NCBI RefSeq assembly: GCF_000025945.1
Contig: NC_006138.1
Location: 330,001-362,000, forward strand
Source of the DNA: Desulfotalea psychrophila LSv54
GTDB lineage: Bacteria > Desulfobacterota > Desulfobulbia > Desulfobulbales > Desulfocapsaceae
Direction of reading: 5' to 3'
DNA: 32,000 bases
Numbering within the stretch: the first letter of the stretch is position 1; every line of letters begins with the position of its first letter. Positions 7,245 to 22,332 of the stretch are shown one piece after another. A model generated the notes under the pieces. The model was not told the DNA's origin. It was given only the letters and a program-made list of their open reading frames with translations, and searched no databases. A program made the translations under genes and the position numbers.

Positions 7245-8387
7245 ATGAGCGACAAAGACATCACCTGCCCCAAGTGTTCACACCAACAAAACAGTGAGGC
7301 AGAATGCGAGTCCTGCGGTATTATTTTCGCAAAGCATCAACTCTTTCTTGAAAAGAAAAAGGCGACAGCAGAGGCGCAAGAGATTCCACTCCCTGAGAGA
7401 AAAAGAGAGGTCAGCGGCCCTTCATTTACCATCCTGATCCTCCTTCTGGTCTTATGTACTGCCGCCACCACCTATTATTTTGTAAAACCAAGGGCCACCG
7501 CCCCGCCGCCAACTATCACAGCCAGCGAAAGCAGAACTGTAAAACCTGCGTCCACAGGTAAAATTACCCGACAAGAGCTTGCTCCCCTAACCAATTTGAC
7601 AACAACAGATGCTATTGCCAGGGCCCTACGGGCGACGGTACAGATACGGACAGCATGGAGTACCGGCTCCGGTTTTTTCCTCACCGATAGTTTTATTATC
7701 ACCAATCGGCATGTGGTAAAAGCCGTAAAACAGGACTTTTCGGAGCAGCGAAGAAATATCAACAATACAAGAAAACTGGTGGAGCTTGAAAAGCAGAAGA
7801 TACGCAATCTCCATGCACGGCTGAAAAAGATGGCCAAGGGCCCGGGACGCGAACAGCTAAAAATTATTATTGCAGAACATGAACGCCAACTTGCCCTGGT
7901 ACTCCCAAAACTTTCACAGAAAGAAAACGAATTAAAAAATTTGGAAAAGGCAGTGACAGAGAGAGGTGACATTGTTGTCTATATGGCCGATGGTAGCAAA
8001 CACACTGGATATCTCACCCAGGTAAGTGACCACTATGACTTAGCTCTTCTTTCTATCTTTTCCGTCGAGCATGGCAAAATCCCCCTAGCGCCAGCGGGCT
8101 CAAAGCTCCAACAGGGAGATAAGGTTTATACTATAGGCAGCCCCGTCGGCCTACAAAACACTGTTACTGCAGGCATTTTCTCTGGCTACAGAAGAGCAGA
8201 TGACAGTAAAAAAATATATCTGCAGACAGATGCGGCAATTAATCCAGGAAATAGCGGTGGGCCGCTCATTGACGAAAACGGTCATATTCGTGGCATAAAC
8301 ACCATGGTTCTAAAAAATACAGAGGGTATTGGCTTCGCCATTCCCATTGAAAAGGTTTATGAGGATTTTGGTTCAGTCCTTTACTAA
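7245..8387 (+). CDS. Membrane-anchored trypsin-like (S1C/HtrA-like) serine protease with N-terminal zinc ribbon, no PDZ
   Basis: CPKC...CESC zinc ribbon, one TM (FTILILLLVLCTAATTYYFV), catalytic His (ITNRHVV), Asp (YDLALLSI) and Ser (NPGNSGGPL). GGAG lies 6 nt before the ATG at 7245; the track ORF opens at a TTG at 7233. Confidence 0.85.
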   Translation: MSDKDITCPKCSHQQNSEAECESCGIIFAKHQLFLEKKKATAEAQEIPLPERKREVSGPSFTILILLLVLCTAATTYYFVKPRATAPPPTITASESRTVKPASTGKITRQELAPLTNLTTTDAIARALRATVQIRTAWSTGSGFFLTDSFIITNRHVVKAVKQDFSEQRRNINNTRKLVELEKQKIRNLHARLKKMAKGPGREQLKIIIAEHERQLALVLPKLSQKENELKNLEKAVTERGDIVVYMADGSKHTGYLTQVSDHYDLALLSIFSVEHGKIPLAPAGSKLQQGDKVYTIGSPVGLQNTVTAGIFSGYRRADDSKKIYLQTDAAINPGNSGGPLIDENGHIRGINTMVLKNTEGIGFAIPIEKVYEDFGSVLY

Positions 8388-8569
8388 ACAATTAGCTTAA
8401 CAGCTGGCCATGCGTCCGAGTTGAAGGAGGGGCATGAAACTAGCTGGCAAGATGTACAACAAAATACAATTATTCACAGTTATCTCCCCTAGGCAGTAGC
8501 TTAAATCAGCAAACAGCTTCTAACAAACAGATCTATTCCCCCCCCGAAATCCATCCCTATGGAGGAAGT

Positions 8570-10213
8570 ATGATTACAGTTTTGCATGGATACCTGCTTG
8601 AAGGCTCAGGAAGCAACCTATGGACCCGTGCCACTGTCCAATCTCTCTGTGAAAGCGGAGAAACCGTCCACCTCATGTGTCAAGAAAACCATCCGGATCT
8701 CTATGATTTTATCAGTGACGCAATACTTTATAAGGCAAATGGGAAGAGGGAAACCTTACTAAAACGCAAACCCATCTATCCAGGCAGATGCATTATGCAT
8801 AAACCGCATATAGGAGAGACACTGCCTGTCTATGTAAAGGATAAATATGAAGAATTTTCTGACGTACGACCAATGGTTGAACTCAGTGATGGAGAAATTG
8901 AAACATATCTGCGGACAAACGTTAAAATACTCCAGCAAATAGTAGACGAAAATGAAATTAAGGTTATTCTTGCCAACCATGCCGTTCTTATGTCTGTCGT
9001 TGCCCAACGAGTAGGAAAGACACGAAATATCCCCTATGCTATAATGCCCCATGGGAGCGCCATCGAATATGCTGTAAAAAAGGACAGGAGATATTTTAAC
9101 TATGCCGAAAGTGCATTTGCTGAGGCACAGAGAATATACGTCATTGGCAAAGAGATGAGAGAGAGGCTCAAGAACCTATTCACAAAATTGCCTCAGATTG
9201 AAGACAAAATGAAAGAGTTAAATCTGGGGGTCAACACCTCCCTCTTTAACCCCATAAAGAGAGAAGAGAGAAAAGACAATATAGGCAAGCTCTGCCTGGC
9301 ATTAGAAAAGGTGCCACGGGGCAAGACAGGCTCTCAACAGTCCATGCCAGAACAACTGACAGCCGATATTTCCAAGCGAAACTTATTGAGTATTATACAT
9401 GCCTCATCCTCTTACCATGCAAAATTTCCAGATGATAATGTCGAAGAAAAGTTGCAAATGGTGGAGTGGAATAATGAAAAAATCATTCTATTTGTTGGTC
9501 GACTCATCGCAAACAAAGGTCTCCATTCAATCATAGCCGCCCTACCTGAAATACTTGCCAATCAAGTAAATACACGCCTGATCATAGTAGGACACGGTCC
9601 ACAACGCGAACAACTTGAAACACTTATTTGGGCATTACAAAACGGACACTCAGACTTAGTCCTTAATCTTGTAAACTGGGGAAGAGAGCTGGAGGGTGAC
9701 GGGGAAAGCGCCTGGCAAGAGATACAGCTCTATTTTAATCACCTGAAAAAACATGATAAGCTGACTCCATATTTTAAAAAAGCGCAAAAGCACCTGAAGC
9801 AAGACAGCGTAATATTCACAGGATACCTTACTCACAAAGAGCTGTGTCACCTGTTTCCTGCATGCGACGTAGCAATTTTTCCATCTATTGTCGCCGAGGC
9901 CGGCCCCCTGGTATTTTTAGAGGCAATGGCCTCAGCTTGCTTTCCCATCGGCACATATTTTGCTGGCATGGCGGCGAGCATAGATTCCGTAGCAGATGCC
10001 CTTCCTCAGAATGTAGTAGACTTAATGAAAATAAGTCCACGGCCTGAGCAAACGGTAATGGATATCATAGCGAAGACAAAAGGCGCCCTCTCTGTTGACA
10101 GATATTACAAAGAAAAATTACGCAGGATTGCCATTGAAAAATATGATTGGAAAAACATCAGCAAAGTCCTGGCCTCAGATTTACACAGATTGCAGACATT
10201 AGTGAAAAGATAA
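8570..10213 (+). CDS. GT-B fold glycosyltransferase (family 4 / 'glycosyl transferases group 1'-like), unusually long
   Basis: 547 aa with GGAGGAAG SD upstream. The C-terminal half has the GT4 pattern (ILFVGRLIANKG..., FPSIVAEAGPLVFLEAMA with the E-x7-E-like motif). Extra inserts sit between the two Rossmann halves. Substrate is unknown. Confidence 0.75.
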   Translation: MITVLHGYLLEGSGSNLWTRATVQSLCESGETVHLMCQENHPDLYDFISDAILYKANGKRETLLKRKPIYPGRCIMHKPHIGETLPVYVKDKYEEFSDVRPMVELSDGEIETYLRTNVKILQQIVDENEIKVILANHAVLMSVVAQRVGKTRNIPYAIMPHGSAIEYAVKKDRRYFNYAESAFAEAQRIYVIGKEMRERLKNLFTKLPQIEDKMKELNLGVNTSLFNPIKREERKDNIGKLCLALEKVPRGKTGSQQSMPEQLTADISKRNLLSIIHASSSYHAKFPDDNVEEKLQMVEWNNEKIILFVGRLIANKGLHSIIAALPEILANQVNTRLIIVGHGPQREQLETLIWALQNGHSDLVLNLVNWGRELEGDGESAWQEIQLYFNHLKKHDKLTPYFKKAQKHLKQDSVIFTGYLTHKELCHLFPACDVAIFPSIVAEAGPLVFLEAMASACFPIGTYFAGMAASIDSVADALPQNVVDLMKISPRPEQTVMDIIAKTKGALSVDRYYKEKLRRIAIEKYDWKNISKVLASDLHRLQTLVKR

Positions 10214-14731: not shown

Positions 14732-15349
14732 TTAAGGGTGGGGCTCCTGCAGAAGACGATAGGCAAAAAATACTCGAACGACGGTGGTCACCAGACAGAG
14801 CAGGGCGAAAAAAAGCGCCAGAGCGGGGAACCACTGGGGCAAGAGACAGAAGAGAATAAAAAAACAGATGGTCTCCGTCCCCTCGGCAAGACCGCCAAGA
14901 TAGTAAAACCCCTTAGAGGGATAGACAATAAGGGGAAGAGACCTCCTCTCGGCGAAGACGGCAAAGGCCAAAAAAGAGGAGGAGGTACCCATAAAGGCAG
15001 CCAGAAGCAGGTCAGCAGCCAGGGCATTCTCCCCAGGCGCGGCCAGGGCAAAGCCCAGAACTACCACGGCATAAAAAATAAAATCACAAACTATATCAAG
15101 ATAGGCTCCATCATCGCTTGCCCCCTGAATACGGGCCAAGGCCCCATCCACCCCATCCAAAAACCGATTAAGACAGATACAGAACAGGGCAGGAATATAC
15201 TGTTCGACCGCTAAAAGAGGCAGGGTAACAAGGCCACAGCAAAGGCCAAAGAGGGTTACCCGATTGGCAGTGATGTCCCGGGCATGGAGGAGACGAGCGC
15301 AGAAGGATAAAAAAGAGCTGGTTCTGGGTAGTATATAACGATCGAGCAT
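14732..15349 (-). CDS. CDP-alcohol phosphatidyltransferase family membrane protein (YnjF-like)
   Basis: Signature D(x)2DG(x)2AR...G(x)3D(x)3D is seen as LDGVDGALARIQGASDDGAYLDIVCD, with multiple TM segments. The ATG for MLDRYILP at 15349 lies 4 nt after the upstream ATPase stop; the track ORF extends to 15403. Confidence 0.8.
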   Translation of the reverse strand: MLDRYILPRTSSFLSFCARLLHARDITANRVTLFGLCCGLVTLPLLAVEQYIPALFCICLNRFLDGVDGALARIQGASDDGAYLDIVCDFIFYAVVVLGFALAAPGENALAADLLLAAFMGTSSSFLAFAVFAERRSLPLIVYPSKGFYYLGGLAEGTETICFFILFCLLPQWFPALALFFALLCLVTTVVRVFFAYRLLQEPHP

Positions 15350-15353
15350 AGCT

Positions 15354-15977
15354 TCACCCCTGAGAAAAAACGATTTTAGCAGCCAACACATCCTCACTGT
15401 CATGGGTCACCAACAGGGCAGGGATATCCATCTCCTCTACCTGCTCCACCACGAAGGCCCTAAAGCTCTGCCTGAGGGCTGCATCAAGCTGAGAAAATGG
15501 CTCATCAAGAAGAACAAGGCGTGGCCTTGCCAACAGGGTTCGCAGCAGTGAGACACGCGCCTTCTGCCCACCAGAGAGGGTCTGAACAGAACGCTCGGCA
15601 AAACCTGCAAGTCCCGCCCCTGCCAAGGCCTGCGCCGCTTGCAGAGGTCGCTGCTTACCCGGCACGGAACCGGGCAGGGCAAAGGCCAGATTCTGACCGA
15701 CATTCATATGGGGAAAGAGCAGGACTTCCTGAAAGAGAATCCCCACCTGCCGTCTCTCCATGGGCAGGCCCAAGAGAGAGGCCCCATCCAGAAGAATCTC
15801 TCCCGAGAAGGTAAAGACCGGATGCAGGCAACCGCTGACCAGGGAGAGCAGGGTCGATTTACCACAACCACTGGGCCCCATAAAGGAGAGAATCTCTCCC
15901 CGCGCCACCACGGCACTGACCGGGGCAAAGAGAGCTTTACCCTGCAGGGATATCTGCACATCTTTTAGTTCAAGCAT
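15354..15977 (-). CDS. ABC transporter ATP-binding protein (YnjD-like)
   Basis: Walker A GPSGCGKST, signature LSGGQKARVSL, Walker B LVLLDEPFSQLD and H-loop VTHD. The start MLELKDVQ at 15977 has an AAGAGGA SD. The 29-codon upstream extension in the track is low-complexity and unlikely to be translated. Confidence 0.85.
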   Translation of the reverse strand: MLELKDVQISLQGKALFAPVSAVVARGEILSFMGPSGCGKSTLLSLVSGCLHPVFTFSGEILLDGASLLGLPMERRQVGILFQEVLLFPHMNVGQNLAFALPGSVPGKQRPLQAAQALAGAGLAGFAERSVQTLSGGQKARVSLLRTLLARPRLVLLDEPFSQLDAALRQSFRAFVVEQVEEMDIPALLVTHDSEDVLAAKIVFSQG

Positions 15978-16104
15978 TTTTTCCTCTTTTGCCTTTGCTC
16001 TTGAGTTTGACCGACTGCACCGGAGAGAGCCACGGGGGCTGCTAGTTGAGCCAGCAATGCTCAACGGTTCAACACCTTTTATCAGGCTAATGATGAATGC
16101 CCTG

Positions 16105-16670
16105 TTATGCCCTTATATATCTACCGTATGATTCAACCCTTGTTAAAAGCCTATTAGAGAGTAGTTTGTTAGCTACATGAAGATGTTGGTGGATCAGCAG
16201 GGCCTCTTCTTTGTAGGCAAGGCGCCTTTCATTAGTCCAGGACCATGGTGGCTCTGATAAATTAGTTGTTCTGTCCGCCAGCTTTACCCCATCCATACCT
16301 CTTTCGGTTGTAACTTTATCCTGTTCAAGAAATCCAGTATCTGTTCTTTCTTGAAGGCAAGATCTTCGTTTTTGGTAAGGGCATTAACACCTTGGGCCAC
16401 TTCCAGGCCGAAATTGCCTTCAATAGTTTTAAAATCTACATCTGTATCTTCAATAGTGTCATGGAGAAGAGCGCATTGGATGGCAAGATCACCGTTTAGA
16501 TTGGGATTAGAATTTAGTCCGCAAATTAACTCCATAGCTACACTACCTATGTGGTTAAGATAGGGTATTCGTTGACCTTCGATCGGCGCTCCATATGCCT
16601 GTCCTTCATGCGCCATAGTTGCAAAACCCCAAGCTTTGACATATAGATCTTGAGACCAGTTTTGCGTCAT
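16105..16670 (-). pseudogene. RelA/SpoT-type HD (HD_4) phosphohydrolase, small-alarmone-hydrolase-like, split by a frameshift
   Basis: ORF 16284..16670 carries AHEGQ...PYLNHIGSVA...LLHDTIEDT...GVNALTK and ends ...KEVWMG*. ORF 16105..16296 continues in another frame with VKLADRTTNL... The junction is a G4 run (plus-strand CCCC at 16287-16290). Adding one G restores a single product of about 190 aa. Confidence 0.7.
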
Positions 16671-16755
16671 TTTCTATCCTTATTTCAGGGCTATTTTAGG
16701 CATATTTTAAATCAGGAGCGCGGCTTTTTGCATCCGCTAAAGTGTCATGTTAGAT

Positions 16756-17172
16756 TTATTCAATGTGTCGCTCTATCTCACTTCTAATATCATTAGCCGT
16801 CTGCTCAGGTGTTGCCAATCCAGCAGCAACCAGAAAACATAGAAAGGAAACAATTCCAACGAGAATTGTTGACGTGTTATTTTTGATTTTTAAATGAACC
16901 GAAATTATGAGCCAGATCCAAGACATACAACCAATAATAAATAATAGGTTGTATAATTTCTCTCCTGGCACTCCAAACCAGTTAACTGCTGAACAAGACA
17001 TGAGATACCCAGCAATAGCAAAAAGAAGCCACCCAATGGAAATCTCTTTTTCATCTTGATTTAATAATAATGTCCAATCAAAGTTCGAATCTTTAAATTC
17101 GTTATCGAGCTTTTTGACGGCAGTAACATTTTTTTGGATCTTATCCAATTTTGAACCAATATCAATTGACAT
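16756..17172 (-). CDS. Hypothetical 3-TM membrane protein with N-terminal amphipathic/coiled segment
   Basis: 138 aa. A strong AAGGAGG SD is embedded in the last codons of the upstream ORF, with a 3-nt gap. Three hydrophobic spans: IGWLLFAIAGYLMSCSAVNWF, LYNLLFIIGCMSWIWLIISV, ILVGIVSFLCFLVAAGLA. I recognise no family. Confidence 0.6.
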   Translation of the reverse strand: MSIDIGSKLDKIQKNVTAVKKLDNEFKDSNFDWTLLLNQDEKEISIGWLLFAIAGYLMSCSAVNWFGVPGEKLYNLLFIIGCMSWIWLIISVHLKIKNNTSTILVGIVSFLCFLVAAGLATPEQTANDIRSEIERHIE

Positions 17173-17175
17173 AAC

Positions 17176-17553
17176 CTACCTCCTTTTCGGAGGATTAAGT
17201 ACTTTGCCTATATCTTTATCTGCATCTCCTTCAGACCAATCCGTATCCTCTCCCTTAATGAAAAGTATACGATTCTCTTCCATAGATATGTTTGTTCCAC
17301 CAAATGTAACTCCATCGATGTTTCCACTAACAAGTCTCTGTGGTACTACTTTAAGTATCTCATTAACTGTTTCGTAGGTATCTTTTACCGAATAGTCATC
17401 TTGGAGGCCGCTCTCGAGCTTTACCTCTACGACACCGCCCTGCATCTTAGCGGGATAGACAATAATATTCATTCCAATATCACGCCTTAACCTAGGTTTG
17501 AGTACCTTTTGTATTTTTTCGATATATTTATTTATAATATTTCTATCTTTCAC
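17176..17553 (-). CDS. Hypothetical small soluble protein (orphan)
   Basis: 125 aa with a GTG start preceded by AAGGAG at 8-nt spacing. Basic N- and C-termini and a beta-rich middle. Translationally coupled to the 3-TM ORF. I recognise no family. Confidence 0.55.
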   Translation of the reverse strand: MKDRNIINKYIEKIQKVLKPRLRRDIGMNIIVYPAKMQGGVVEVKLESGLQDDYSVKDTYETVNEILKVVPQRLVSGNIDGVTFGGTNISMEENRILFIKGEDTDWSEGDADKDIGKVLNPPKRR

Positions 17554-17739
17554 ACTTGATTCTCCTTAAATGCCCAACAATTTATTATTCACAAACTAGA
17601 TATCTCCCCCGTAAGCCAAATCCCTGCCAAACAAAACCACTGCATCTTCTAGCAAGAAACCACCGCCAAGCCAAGCCATTTAACTTGTTTTTGAAGTAAG
17701 TTAGCAACGTAACAGCTACTTAGCCCCTACCTCTCCCTC

Positions 17740-19434
17740 TCAGGCCTTCGACTGCCGAGAGAAGAAGAGGGCAGCGGAGTAGACCAGCAGAGGGAGAGCA
17801 AGCTGGAGAAGGGCATAGACAGCGGTGACTCGCATATCGCCTCCTGAGACCCTATTCACCGCCTCGGTGGTGATTGTGGGGAAACGTCCTGCCCCCACAT
17901 AGAGGGTGGGCAGGTACTGGACAAGGCTTACAGAAAATCCCGTTGCCAGAGAGAAGGCAATGGTCTTTTTCAGCATGGGGAGCTTCACCTGCAAAAGAGC
18001 GCGCCACCACGACCCGCGCAGAGAGAGGGCCAGATCAAAATAACGATTATCAAAAGAGCGATAACTCTGCCCCAGGGTAATAAAGACATAGGGCAGAACA
18101 AAAACCACATGGGAGAAAAGAAGGGCGACAAAACTGCCATCAAGTCCTGAGAAAACCGCTACCATCTGCAGACCAAAGACAAAGGAGATCTGGGGAAGAA
18201 GAAAGGGCAGATAGAGTAACCACAGACTGCGCCGCACCCGCGTCCCCTCTCCCCGCTGAAGAAGAACTCGCTCATACTCCAGACATCCCACCACAAGAAC
18301 AAGAGAGATCAGAGCGGATAAAACCCCCAAAAGAAGGGTTACCACGATGGGTTCCTGGGCTGAAAGCAGGCCCCTGTACCAGTAATGCCAGCTATAACTG
18401 GCGGGGAGGATATCCGGAAAACGCCATCTCCGCGAAACGGAGAGCAGGGCCAGACCGGCAAAGGCCGCCATAAAGAGAAGGCCCAGAGCCATAAGAAGTG
18501 GCCCGGCCCCGGCAAATACTCTGTCAAAAAGGGACGATCTGCCTCCACCAAGAAGCAGGGTCTGCCCCAGGCGGGCAAGTAGCCTCTCCGCCAAATAGCA
18601 GAGAGTAATGGCCAAAAGCACCAACAGACAGAGGGAGGTGGCCCCGGCCGAGGCAAGAAAAAAAGAGCTCGCCTCCCCCTGAATAAACCAGGAATGAACC
18701 AGAACAGCCAGGGTTGGCGGGCGGGAGGGGCCAATAATAAGGGCCACATCCACCACAGAGAGAGAGTAGGCCAGAACTGCCCAGAAAGAGAGGCGAAGAT
18801 GGGGGTAGAGTTGAGGGAGAATAATGGTCAACCAGATACGGGTCGGACCATAGCCAAAACTCTTCCCCAGCCAAATGAGCTTACCCGCCTCAATACGGCT
18901 CAGGGCCGCTATCCCCATAAAGAGAAGAAAGGCAATCTCCTTACAGGCAAGGACAAAGGCCAAACTTAGCCCCCAGGGATCTGCCACCAGGGAAAAGTTG
19001 GGGGGAATAGTCCAGCCGGTAAGCAGTGAGGCCAAGAGGCGCATCAGCCAACCACTGGGACTCAACAAAAAGAGAATGCCCAGGGTAAAGGAGACATGGG
19101 GAATGGCCAACCAAAAACCCAAAATGCGGTGCAGGAAGGCCCACATCTTCGTTCCATAGAGCCCCGCCAAAAGAAATAGGGCAACAAAGAGGGCCGCAAA
19201 GGAGGCCGCGAAGCCCGTTGTCAAGGTCAGCAAGAAGGCATCCCTCACCGCCGGATGGTCGAGAAAACGACTCAGATATCTACCGGTAAAACCCTCTCCT
19301 CCCAAGGCGGGCCAAAAGCCAAGGGCGGGTAAAATTGTGGCCACTCCTCCGAGGAGGACGGGCAAGAGAAAGAGCGAGAGACTTAAACAGGGAAAAAGGG
19401 CCAGCAGGATCTCTTTAGTAGATCTTGCCATCAC
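17740..19434 (-). CDS. ABC transporter permease, fused two-domain type (YnjC-like)
   Basis: 564-aa polytopic protein with two tandem binding-protein-dependent permease halves. Its start overlaps the SBP stop (ATGA). Confidence 0.85.
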   Translation of the reverse strand: MMARSTKEILLALFPCLSLSLFLLPVLLGGVATILPALGFWPALGGEGFTGRYLSRFLDHPAVRDAFLLTLTTGFAASFAALFVALFLLAGLYGTKMWAFLHRILGFWLAIPHVSFTLGILFLLSPSGWLMRLLASLLTGWTIPPNFSLVADPWGLSLAFVLACKEIAFLLFMGIAALSRIEAGKLIWLGKSFGYGPTRIWLTIILPQLYPHLRLSFWAVLAYSLSVVDVALIIGPSRPPTLAVLVHSWFIQGEASSFFLASAGATSLCLLVLLAITLCYLAERLLARLGQTLLLGGGRSSLFDRVFAGAGPLLMALGLLFMAAFAGLALLSVSRRWRFPDILPASYSWHYWYRGLLSAQEPIVVTLLLGVLSALISLVLVVGCLEYERVLLQRGEGTRVRRSLWLLYLPFLLPQISFVFGLQMVAVFSGLDGSFVALLFSHVVFVLPYVFITLGQSYRSFDNRYFDLALSLRGSWWRALLQVKLPMLKKTIAFSLATGFSVSLVQYLPTLYVGAGRFPTITTEAVNRVSGGDMRVTAVYALLQLALPLLVYSAALFFSRQSKA

Positions 19435-20669
19435 CTATGACCATAGCGCGCTTGCCACTCCTCTTCTATCATCACCGTCCAAGAGGGATGCGGCTCAGGA
19501 TAGACCCTGCCCAGCTCCTCTGCAGAGAGGGTGGCTGGACCTGAATGACCGATAAAAAGTGCTTTTTGCCGATCATTCAACTTTTCCATGGCCAGTACCG
19601 TTGGATCACCCCAGACTGCCAGATCACTTTTTTGGGCCTGGGCCTCGGGTGAGAGTAGCATATTAATAAAGACCAGGGCGGCTGCCCTGTTTGAAGAGTT
19701 TCGAGGAACGGCCAGAAAATGGGTATTGGCCAGGGAACCACTGCTATGGACATAGGTCCGCACAGAGTCGGGGAGCTCTCCGTTTTCTATGGCCCTGCTG
19801 GCCTCGTTGGGATTAAAGGAGTAGGCAATAAATATTTCCCGGTTATCTAGGAGGGAGACAAGGGCCGGAGAACTGGTAACAAAGGTATTTCCCTTGCGCC
19901 ACATAAGGGGATGAAGACGATCCAGATAATGCCAAAGAGGGGCCGTCACCCGGGAAAAATCCTCTTTTTTGACGGGGGCGAGCAGTGCCTCTGGCTCCGA
20001 TATACTCTCCAGTAAGAGCTGTTTCAGAAAGGCTGTCCCGTAAAATGAAGGAGGGGCAGGATAGGTGAAACGACCGGGATGGGCCTCGGCAAAGACAAGT
20101 AGCTCCTCCATGCTATGGGGCGGCTGAGCCAGAACATCTGTATCGTACATAAAAACCAGTTGAGCCATTCCCCAAGGAGTCTCGTAACCATCCACCGGCA
20201 CGGTAAAATCACGTTGCACAGTCGGTTTCTGCCAATCCACCAAGGCGGCATTGGGTAGCAAATTGCGGGGAACCTGATAGAGCAGATCACTCTTTTTGAG
20301 TTGTTGAAAATTTTCCCCGTTTATCCAGAGCAGATCCACCCGCCCACCGTCAAGACGCCCGGCAGATTTTTCCACCAGAAGGCGACCAACAACTTCTGCA
20401 ATATCAGTGACCTTGACATGTTTGACCTCTATTCCATACTTCTCTTGGGCCCTTCGACTAGCCCAAGAAACATAGTCGTTTATGGGCTCAGAGCCACCCC
20501 AGGCATTAAAGTAGATGGTCTGACCACGGGCCTCCCCTTCAATCTGCGCCCAAGCCCCAAGGGCGGCAGAGGAGTTCTGGATAAAGAGGAAGAGAAAAGA
20601 GACCGTAACAAGAAACGGCCAAACAAACCTACCTTTCACCAAACATTTCACCAAAAAGTTTTTCCGCAT
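19431..20669 (-). CDS. ABC transporter periplasmic substrate-binding protein (YnjB-like)
   Basis: Signal peptide (FVWPFLVTVSFLFLFIQNSSAALG) and an extracellular solute-binding fold of about 390 aa. Alternative starts lie at 20675 and 20681. All candidate starts lie inside the 3' end of the K+ channel gene. Confidence 0.8.
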   Translation of the reverse strand: MRKNFLVKCLVKGRFVWPFLVTVSFLFLFIQNSSAALGAWAQIEGEARGQTIYFNAWGGSEPINDYVSWASRRAQEKYGIEVKHVKVTDIAEVVGRLLVEKSAGRLDGGRVDLLWINGENFQQLKKSDLLYQVPRNLLPNAALVDWQKPTVQRDFTVPVDGYETPWGMAQLVFMYDTDVLAQPPHSMEELLVFAEAHPGRFTYPAPPSFYGTAFLKQLLLESISEPEALLAPVKKEDFSRVTAPLWHYLDRLHPLMWRKGNTFVTSSPALVSLLDNREIFIAYSFNPNEASRAIENGELPDSVRTYVHSSGSLANTHFLAVPRNSSNRAAALVFINMLLSPEAQAQKSDLAVWGDPTVLAMEKLNDRQKALFIGHSGPATLSAEELGRVYPEPHPSWTVMIEEEWQARYGHR

Positions 20670-22332
20670 CTGCATTCCCAATAAGAATTAATTCGGTGGA
20701 TTTCACCAGAGGTAGGGTGGGGTCAGGGCCAACCAAAAGCTCTCCATCCATCCTTAGAGCCACAACACTACAACCCGTCTCTTGCCGCACATTACTTTCA
20801 GCCAGGGTTTTGCCAACCAGGGCCCCCGGAATCTGCTGAACAAAGAAGTTCATCCCCTCAATAAAGAGAGAGCCCTCATCGGGTTTAAAGACCTTCATGA
20901 TACGATTTGCCCCCATGGAGGCGTAGGACATTACCAAATCAGCACCAGCCATATGTAGCTTGCTGACACTTCTTTCATTGGTGGCACGACTGATAATCTG
21001 AATATCCGGGCGCAGTTGACGACAGTAAAAGGTGAGATAGATATTGGCGGCATCGTCGTGGGTGGTGATAATGGCGGCCCGGGCATTTTCTATTCCCGCC
21101 TCTATAAGAACATCTCTATTGGCCGCATCTCCCGCAACAAAATTCACTCCCCCTCTGGCAACAACGGCAGAGGACTTCTCAACCACCCGATATTTCACTC
21201 CATAGCCGTCAAGTACCTGACTCGCTGCCAAGCCCACCCGACCTCCACCCAAAACAAGAACCAGCTTATCGTCCTCGGAGGAGAGGTCTGTAATAATAAA
21301 TTTTTCTTCAAAGCAATCGAGTTGGGCCAGAGTGCCAGCCAGGAGAAGGCTTGAAGATTTATTAATAATAGTTTTTGCATGAAGAGCTTCAAACTGCCCC
21401 TTTTCCCAGAGGCCCACAAGAGTCGCCCCTGTTCGCGTGCGAAGCATGGTCTCGGTCAAAAGAAGCCCGCCCAGACTTGTCTGTGAAACGGGTATTTCGG
21501 CGATATGAAGCTGATCAAAGCTGCTGACAATCTTGGTCAGCCGCCCCACCCCCCGCACCCGTTCAGCAAGAGATTCACCCAACATCTTCATAAAGAGAAA
21601 GACCTGAGTATTTCCAGGAAAATTAAGAATATCAAGAGAATGCTCCTTATCAGCTGCGGCAACAATGGGCACCTTGGCGGTGATCCCCCGAATGGTAAAG
21701 GAGATATTTGTGGCCATCATATCATCGTTGGTAATCACCACCAGGGCCGCATCCTCCACCCTGACACTCAAAAAGGTATCCGGATCATCGGGCTCGCCAA
21801 CCACAATTTTGTAGCCCTGATCATGCAACTCCATACCCCTCTGAGCATCGGCAACAATGATCACATAGTCATAACCACGACGCTTGAGCTTTTCAACAAG
21901 CCTCTCGGTGATGGGATCGAGATGAGTAATGATAACATGGCCACTAACCCCCTTAACCAGCTCACGCGGGGTACGTTTTCTCGTCTGCGCCTCAAGCCAG
22001 GGCGCATAAAAGAACTGAATAAAGGAGAAGGGAAGCATGATGAGGAGAAAGACAACCCCGGAGAGGAGGACAACAATGGTAAAGAGGAGGCCCAGATCGG
22101 TATGAAAGGTGATATCACCGAAGCCCAGGGTCGACATCACCGTCAGGGCCCAGTAAATACCGGTTATCCAGGAGTACTCCTTACCCTCATAGAGCATAAT
22201 CAGATGAAAGAGTACGCTATACAAGGTTACCATGCACAGGAGAAAGACAAAGAACTTGGCCAGGGCGGCAAGGTTTCGCTGCGACCCCTTATTTTGAAAA
22301 AAGTAGAGTATCTGGGATGGGAGAAATTTCAT
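20629..22332 (-). CDS. Potassium channel protein with two RCK/TrkA-N domains
   Basis: 2-TM pore module with selectivity-filter-like TVMSTLGFGDIT, followed by two Rossmann-type RCK domains (HVIITHLD..., LVLGGGRVGLAAS...) with TrkA-C-like segments. Confidence 0.85.
   Translation of the reverse strand: MKFLPSQILYFFQNKGSQRNLAALAKFFVFLLCMVTLYSVLFHLIMLYEGKEYSWITGIYWALTVMSTLGFGDITFHTDLGLLFTIVVLLSGVVFLLIMLPFSFIQFFYAPWLEAQTRKRTPRELVKGVSGHVIITHLDPITERLVEKLKRRGYDYVIIVADAQRGMELHDQGYKIVVGEPDDPDTFLSVRVEDAALVVITNDDMMATNISFTIRGITAKVPIVAAADKEHSLDILNFPGNTQVFLFMKMLGESLAERVRGVGRLTKIVSSFDQLHIAEIPVSQTSLGGLLLTETMLRTRTGATLVGLWEKGQFEALHAKTIINKSSSLLLAGTLAQLDCFEEKFIITDLSSEDDKLVLVLGGGRVGLAASQVLDGYGVKYRVVEKSSAVVARGGVNFVAGDAANRDVLIEAGIENARAAIITTHDDAANIYLTFYCRQLRPDIQIISRATNERSVSKLHMAGADLVMSYASMGANRIMKVFKPDEGSLFIEGMNFFVQQIPGALVGKTLAESNVRQETGCSVVALRMDGELLVGPDPTLPLVKSTELILIGNADAEKLFGEMFGER

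Follow-up and report, generated by a model that had tools for sequence, protein, structure and literature searches.

We analysed a stretch of 32,000 nucleotides from the chromosome of Desulfotalea psychrophila LSv54 (contig NC_006138.1, positions 330,001 to 362,000; hereafter the window, in which all positions are counted from its first letter), and describe here a pair of small genes on its minus strand, called A and B. Gene A (17176–17553) is an open reading frame (ORF) of 125 aa encoding a soluble alpha/beta protein, and gene B (16756–17172) is an ORF of 138 aa encoding a membrane protein. The region upstream of A (17554–17569, minus strand) was read from the sequence as its ribosome-binding site, with AAGGAG at 17567–17562 and a spacer of 8 nt before the GTG start codon at 17553–17551. 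In alignments, residue 1 of the homologues coincides with this start. Protein A ends in PPKRR, and its stop codon TAG is located at 17178–17176. At the junction of the two genes the minus strand reads CCG AAA AGG AGG TAG GTT ATG. As A ends in AAA AGG AGG TAG, its last sense codons supply the AAGGAGG ribosome-binding site of B (17179–17185, minus strand), and the ATG of B (17172–17170) follows 3 nt (GTT) past the stop codon of A. An earlier note on this DNA, made from the sequence alone, had described the same start, spacing, protein end and junction, and all of them are present in the sequence. The GC content of the A-B cassette is 0.36 compared to 0.50 in its flanks. No Rfam family was found in the window, and promoter or terminator signals did not exceed the shuffled expectation.

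Next, we surveyed the pair by a scripted analysis of 44 loci having a complete A gene. We observed the following. A gene of the B family was present directly downstream of A in 42 of the 44 loci, and the start of B was located within −4 to +3 nt of the stop codon of A in 39 of them, with a 4-nt ATGA-type overlap in 24 loci. The two genes do, then, travel together, and the translational coupling described in the earlier note is conserved. At the protein level, identities of 33–50% for A and 16–34% for B were obtained across more than 40 independent loci from hosts with GC contents of 0.35 to 0.70, and the gene order, spacing and motifs of the pair are kept among these. The distances of A and B co-diverge (Mantel r of 0.90, a value reached in 0 of 2000 permutations), A being the more conserved of the two (mean pairwise identity of 0.45 vs 0.31 for B). 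An all-against-all BLAST of 175 neighbouring proteins revealed no conserved third gene. The earlier note had allowed for both frames being conserved in no other genome; they were instead found in over 40 loci, in the same order and with the same coupling. Therefore, we concluded that A-B is a real, obligate and translationally coupled two-gene unit. The coupling likely coordinates the synthesis of the two proteins; the fixed stoichiometry that the note had proposed would be a further step of inference. Adjacent, co-oriented and often overlapping small genes are also the generic arrangement of type II-like toxin-antitoxin systems, and A-B has this arrangement.

A HMMER profile of A found 137 relatives (clusters) at E ≤ 1e-3 among 1.84 billion representative proteins, 77 of them at E ≤ 1e-10; nearly all consist of a single domain of about 125 aa. 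A word-index search yielded three relatives of ∼50% identity, each with a B-aligning membrane protein (138–160 aa) as the next gene on the contig. Scans of metagenome contigs and species-representative genomes added 41 more loci, including metagenome-assembled genomes of the Myxococcales and the Planctomycetota. The family ranges over Gammaproteobacteria, Myxococcales, Planctomycetota and phages, with a patchy and very low frequency. This patchy, horizontally mobile distribution is of the type found for toxin-antitoxin systems.

Protein A also matched phrog_18061 of PHROGs v4, a family of unknown function, with an E-value of 1.3e-12 (residues 3–118 against profile positions 3–119 of 125). By this match A is a member of a (pro)phage family, a membership that names the protein and explains nothing. 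A had no match in Pfam at E ≤ 1, and neither A nor B had a convincing family model in Pfam, NCBIfam or PADLOC (PADLOC-DB v2 of 2023, 5027 models). No RelA/SpoT synthetase signature was found in A with Pfam and NCBIfam. A hit of A to the PADLOC model PDC-M24A (E of 0.014) occurred in only one of the 62 family members and was rejected as a chance match. The description of the two proteins as orphans in the earlier note is, thus, no longer valid for A, while its statement that neither belongs to a known family stands in the sense that no curated family of known function covers them. The match to a housekeeping family that the note had considered as the other possible outcome did not appear for A or B in Pfam, NCBIfam or PADLOC.

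The AlphaFold2 (AF2) model of A was a confident one (pLDDT 85, pTM 0.80), predicting an alpha/beta domain. The chain begins with a basic helix at the N-terminus, continues through a sheet segment of three strands, a short helix and a conserved loop to a beta-hairpin, and closes with a C-terminal helix. The beta-hairpin bears an invariant G-T-N...E..R....K motif, and the conserved polar residues are N64, Q72, N78, T87, N88, E92, R95, K100 and D114; G86 and W106 are conserved as well. A Foldseek search of this model against the PDB gave no match (best E-value of 0.38, TM-scores below 0.32), and the same model had just two marginal matches in BFVD, both to uncharacterised phage proteins. Searching the PDB sequences with profiles built from the A and B alignments gave nothing meaningful.

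Protein B starts with a polar, Lys-rich N-terminus of about 45 aa followed by three hydrophobic segments, located at approximately 44–60, 76–92 and 103–119 by Kyte-Doolittle windows. The all-helical AF2 model, although of low confidence (pLDDT 59), placed helices at 46–66, 71–95 and 99–116. Both methods agree with the polar N-terminus and three transmembrane (TM) spans noted earlier, and three hydrophobic segments were present in all the 37 B proteins that we analysed. The TM2-TM3 loop of these 37 proteins carries a net positive charge (+1.6), unlike the TM1-TM2 loop. From the positive-inside rule we infer that the N-terminal domain and the conserved TM2-TM3 loop are cytoplasmic, and would be within the reach of A. 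The three subfamilies of B are homologous to each other (hhalign probability 98.7–99.2%, E-values of 1e-16 to 1e-19). Each has the three TM helices after a short soluble N-terminal domain, with the motif [QH]-L-[RK]-F-x-[ND] in the loop that joins TM2 to TM3 and an amphipathic helix bearing [TS]-P-x-E at the C-terminus. B lacks a convincing PHROG (matches at E of 8e-4 in 2 of 36 members) and had no match in PADLOC-DB v2.

We then examined the genes that accompany A when the partner is different from B (loci and proteins are cited below by L and P numbers, respectively). The 447-aa protein P0070 is a fusion of the A domain with an HNH nuclease (PF01844, E of 1.3e-12) and a C-terminal domain. 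The HNH and C-terminal region of this fusion is homologous over 234 residues (E of 1e-13) to a free HNH gene of locus L012, located two genes downstream of A-B, and this gene is in turn homologous (E of 5e-11) to the HNH gene of the phage L064, which overlaps B there. In a divergent A subfamily, P0121 (140 aa), A overlaps by 4 nt with a 203-aa TIR-like protein in place of B on three contigs (L059 990–2020, L060 1009–2039 and L061 347–1377); the TIR-like label is that of PF10137 (CAP12-PCTIR), a precomputed Pfam match described as 'faint'. In L059 and L060, toxin-antitoxin genes (HicB, RelB-like, DUF4258 and DUF2283) surround this pair. A second fusion, P0125, having an N-terminal domain joined to A, is followed by a 47%-identical homologue of the 203-aa TIR-like protein (L056 819–2572). 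Other distant A members are still paired with B-like 3-TM proteins (L057 and L062).

The effectors that usually replace one another in defence and toxin-antitoxin systems are membrane proteins and HNH and TIR-like domains. Since HNH, TIR-like and 3-TM proteins are all found beside A, A is the part that stays constant, and its partners come from this classic group of toxic effectors. We regard this partner swapping as the most telling evidence on the function of the pair.

Several other observations were made at these loci. The gene after the TIR-like one in L059 encodes 318 aa and is TIR-like or NDT-like by eye. In L062 (258–3051), the gene for P0105, a protein with an N-terminal domain fused to A, has that for a B-like 132-aa 3-TM protein after it. 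Before it lies the gene for a 545-aa protein, the N-terminus of which resembles a GHKL/MORC-type ATPase by eye only (motif DNGCGM), and Phage_rep_O and HTH_17 genes are present further along. In one Planctomycetota lineage (L014 10382–10762, L039 2117–2497), A is followed by a 126-aa two-TM protein having no detectable kinship to B (hmmsearch scores of 1–4 bits), which could be a further effector replacement or a case of extreme divergence.

The genomic surroundings showed that A-B behaves as a mobile cassette. Its GC content was lower than that of the ±5-kb flanks in 17 of 22 loci, by 6 points on average (Wilcoxon p of 0.0015). Type I restriction-modification genes were close to the pair in two independent loci, in the order HsdR, two small genes, HsdM, HsdS and A-B in L018, and A-B, one gene, HsdM, HsdS and HsdR in L029. 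Tyrosine integrases adjoin the pair in L055 and L047 and are nearby in L044 and L021, and a WYL/WCX regulator is located after the pair in L055. Other accessory neighbours are ORF6N domains (three times), DUF4145 and HNH genes. Most copies of the pair are chromosomal and lie outside prophages. A 303-aa gene without a Pfam match is present directly upstream of A in L021 (8948–9859; the same as L022 4671–5582), with partial matches to the PADLOC models of CBASS (Effector TIR, E of 7.6e-7, and Cyclase, E of 6e-4, a weak match). In L005, a 157-aa membrane protein with the PF24838 (8xMP) domain is encoded at 51–524, just upstream of the pair; a literature search on this domain name yielded nothing relevant.

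Two viral contigs of IMG/VR, L064 and L065, carry pairs of subfamily 3, and the scan of IMG/VR with subfamilies 1 and 2 yielded none. L064 (UViG_3300043413_000122) is a Mu-like phage, the major head protein of which shares 57% identity with its counterpart in Shigella phage SfMu and 72% with the one in Pseudoalteromonas phage HS6. It has a three-gene A-B-HNH cassette (8001–9587), in which all the junctions overlap head to tail, with a GC content of 0.40 compared to 0.61–0.625 in the flanks. This cassette is located among the structural genes, with the tape-measure and head genes on the opposite strand. In L065 the pair is beside a baseplate gene, the product of which is 48% identical to the Vibrio phage PV94 baseplate. 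Such sites are typical of the accessory genes of temperate phages ('morons'), which are often defence or exclusion genes. The holin-like reading offered in the earlier note was not supported: no lysis enzyme was present among the 25 commonest Pfam families of 148 neighbours, and the two phage copies are beside tail or baseplate genes, outside a lysis cassette.

In the window, the pair is part of a low-GC island of about 1.6 kb (16100–17740), defined by a composition profile (GC of 0.35–0.43 compared to 0.50–0.60 in the flanks), that holds A, B and a broken HD gene. The surrounding genes on the minus strand form, by NCBIfam, an ATP-binding cassette (ABC) transporter operon in the order substrate-binding protein (19431–20681, PRK11622-type), permease (17740–19434, a fused double permease), island and ATPase (15354–16064). 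The gene content of this operon is intact without the island, and the island interrupts a single transporter operon, between the permease and ATPase genes, and is not a part of it. No flanking direct repeats were found around the island, and no integrase or tRNA was seen at it.

We compared the pair with known systems. The prophage-borne pairs RexA/RexB of lambda, gp30/gp31 of Sbash and gp30/gp31 of Butters consist of a soluble sensor and a small membrane channel, the soluble partner being proposed to control a membrane-depolarising one and so bring about abortive infection (PMC6426596, PMC7542560). A-B resembles these in that two genes encode a cytoplasmic protein and a membrane protein that is polytopic and small (about 140 aa), and in the presence of some copies in temperate phages. 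It differs in that A lacks DUF4747, the signature of RexA and gp30, and has no sequence kinship to them; in that B has three TM helices compared to four in the membrane component of RexAB; and in that A, unlike RexA, also pairs with HNH and TIR-like partners. RexA is a protein of about 280 aa, compared to the 125 aa of A.

In the toxin-antitoxin systems PanT-D11:PanA (Panacea) and RosmerTA (RmrT/RmrA), the genes are bicistronic and often overlap, and in the toxin the TM helices come after a soluble stretch at the N-terminus; the prediction is that the soluble partner contacts the toxin immediately ahead of its TM segment (PMC10440598). A single partner domain occurs with many unrelated types of toxin, and some of these systems are phage-encoded and act in defence against phages (PMC10440598). 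The coupled genes, the soluble N-terminus and TM helices of B and the varied partners of A are similar to these. However, A has no Panacea (DUF4065), Xre or M78-peptidase domain by Pfam and NCBIfam, and B is unrelated to PanT and RmrT as far as the Pfam and PADLOC models show.

TM, HNH and TIR effectors alternate beside one constant component also in CBASS, Thoeris, Pycsar and retrons. A-B differs from these in lacking a conserved third gene, and its constant part is a 125-aa protein with no evident signal-producing enzyme. Among the neighbours of A-B we found no reverse transcriptase and no SAVED/SLOG sensor, and only one gene, that upstream of A in L021, with a weak cyclase match. GhoS/GhoT is a type V toxin-antitoxin system, in which GhoT, a peptide of about 57 aa, has two TM helices and the RNase GhoS cleaves the ghoT mRNA. 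It is similar in the placement of a gene for a small soluble alpha/beta protein upstream of that for a small membrane-lytic toxin. No sequence or fold similarity to GhoS or GhoT was detected. By analogy, the functionally closest systems appear to be the RexAB-type pairs and the type II toxin-antitoxin systems that combine a membrane-depolarising toxin with a promiscuous soluble partner. A and B would, thus, represent a kind of system that is already known, built from two protein families that appear unrelated to those of the known systems.

We propose that A-B is a self-contained, horizontally mobile conflict module of the toxin-antitoxin or abortive-infection type, in which A regulates the membrane effector B; we place the chance of this at about even. 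In this model, B would be the effector, a small inner-membrane protein with three TM helices, which when unrestrained would oligomerise and compromise the membrane by depolarisation or permeabilisation. Through this damage the cell, or a phage infecting it, would stop growing. A would be the cytoplasmic partner, made first and translationally coupled to B, and might bind the predicted cytoplasmic face of B. It could either keep B inactive, like an antitoxin, or switch B on at some trigger, like a sensor, as RexA does for RexB. The toxin-antitoxin or abortive-infection guess of the earlier note has gained real, if indirect, support from the low GC content and mobility of the cassette, from its restriction-modification and integrase neighbours, from its carriage by Mu-like phages and from the exchange of partners.

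A number of observations weigh against this proposal. The data fit an antitoxin role of A as well as a sensor or activator role, and both the toxicity of B and its binding to A are predictions of the model. The AF2 model of B is of low confidence. The A-HNH fusion is a single cluster, and the TIR-like label comes from a faint match. Ordinary housekeeping genes (TsaB, DinG, DinB, ClpP, GatB and LpxK) are the neighbours at many loci. Restriction-modification genes are in contact with the pair in just 2 of about 22 non-redundant loci, so that an enrichment in defence islands is no more than suggestive. Finally, a tblastn search with three different A proteins did not find the A family in the GenBank phages or the PLSDB plasmids.

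A broader form of the proposal is that A represents a new sensor or regulator domain coupled to at least three classes of killer effectors, in a new abortive-infection family spread by Mu-like phages and islands. We hold this broader form as possible but tentative.

The insertion of the cassette among the tail and baseplate genes of temperate Mu-like phages, where exclusion genes are classically found, together with the small polytopic nature of B and the low GC content and mobility of the cassette, would also suit superinfection exclusion. In that case B, helped or positioned by A, would be a non-toxic membrane gate that blocks DNA entry or another step at the membrane. However, this leaves the pairing and fusion of A with HNH and TIR-like proteins unexplained, as those point to a cytoplasmic regulator of toxic effectors, and most copies of the pair are not in prophages. 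We therefore consider exclusion unlikely.

It could also be argued that the pair serves an ordinary membrane function, for example as a small accessory protein for stress or transport and the cytoplasmic factor that assembles it, and merely happens to lie often in variable regions. The housekeeping neighbours at many loci, the position of the window pair inside a transporter operon and the lack of a match to the known defence models are in line with this. On the other hand, no neighbour or pathway is kept across the loci, and the transporter operon of the window is complete in gene content without the pair. The patchy, cross-phylum and very low-frequency distribution, the GC content below that of the flanks, the phage carriage, the integrase neighbours and the swaps to nuclease and TIR-like partners are also difficult to explain by such a function, which appears to us quite improbable.

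The faster divergence of B, the downstream gene, would suit an immunity protein, and the conserved polar residues of A could make up an active site. The roles might, thus, be reversed, with the A domain being active or toxic and B being a membrane-bound immunity or anchoring partner. Yet neither a fold match nor a recognisable domain of a catalytic or toxin type is present in A, and the HNH and TIR-like partners are of toxic effector types rather than immunity proteins. The joining of the A domain to a nuclease in P0070 is likewise hard to reconcile with A as the toxin, and there is little chance, in our view, that the roles are reversed.

The HD gene of the island (16105–16670, minus strand) lies 85 nt downstream of B on the same strand; the earlier note had suggested a link of the pair to HD hydrolases. 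The gene consists of two ORFs, of 128 aa (16284–16670) and 63 aa (16105–16296), split by a 1-nt frameshift at a run of four G residues (16287–16290). When one G was added, a product of 188 aa was obtained, residues 7–185 of which align across the junction with the small alarmone hydrolase (SAH) structures 6yvc and 6z3n/6z3o (E of 3e-23). The gene is possibly decaying, the frameshift being due to either a pseudogene or a homopolymer sequencing error.

SAH-type enzymes act as antitoxins in toxSAS systems, and A, B and this SAH homologue of the same low-GC island might have formed one alarmone-based toxSAS/SAH-like toxin-antitoxin unit. However, a tblastn search revealed no HD homologue in any of about 50 loci related to A-B, A has no RelA/SpoT synthetase signature and the HD gene is frameshifted in the window. 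The proposed link to HD hydrolases was, thus, not upheld, and a common alarmone-based unit is close to refuted. The HD gene is an SAH-like, separate passenger of the same island. That A and B are chance open frames, as AT-rich DNA like this can hold long spurious ORFs, is refuted by the conservation of protein sequence, order, spacing and motifs across more than 40 loci and by the confident AF2 model of A.

Taken as a conflict module, A-B is a credible and testable candidate for a new compact defence or toxin-antitoxin family. If this is correct, a cassette of about 800 bp would represent an unrecognised family of such modules, the constant subunit of which has no PDB counterpart and no Pfam, NCBIfam or PADLOC (2023) model. 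It would add a new sensor or regulator domain to the few that can be wired to membrane, nuclease and NADase-type effectors, and provide a minimal system in which to study the gating of a small membrane effector by a soluble protein. In terms of annotation, a single module label could be given to about 137 clusters of 'hypothetical proteins' together with their membrane partners, and the 1.6-kb low-GC stretch in the ABC-transporter operon could be recognised as an acquired island and not as a part of the transporter.

Lastly, a minor observation concerns the ATPase gene that borders the island. Its longest ORF (15354–16064, minus strand) encodes 236 aa from a TTG start, and at its 3′ end overlaps by 50 nt with a CDP-alcohol phosphatidyltransferase-like gene (14732–15403, minus strand). 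The protein collection has a version of 207 aa (P0154), and the true start of the ATPase is probably located downstream of the TTG.

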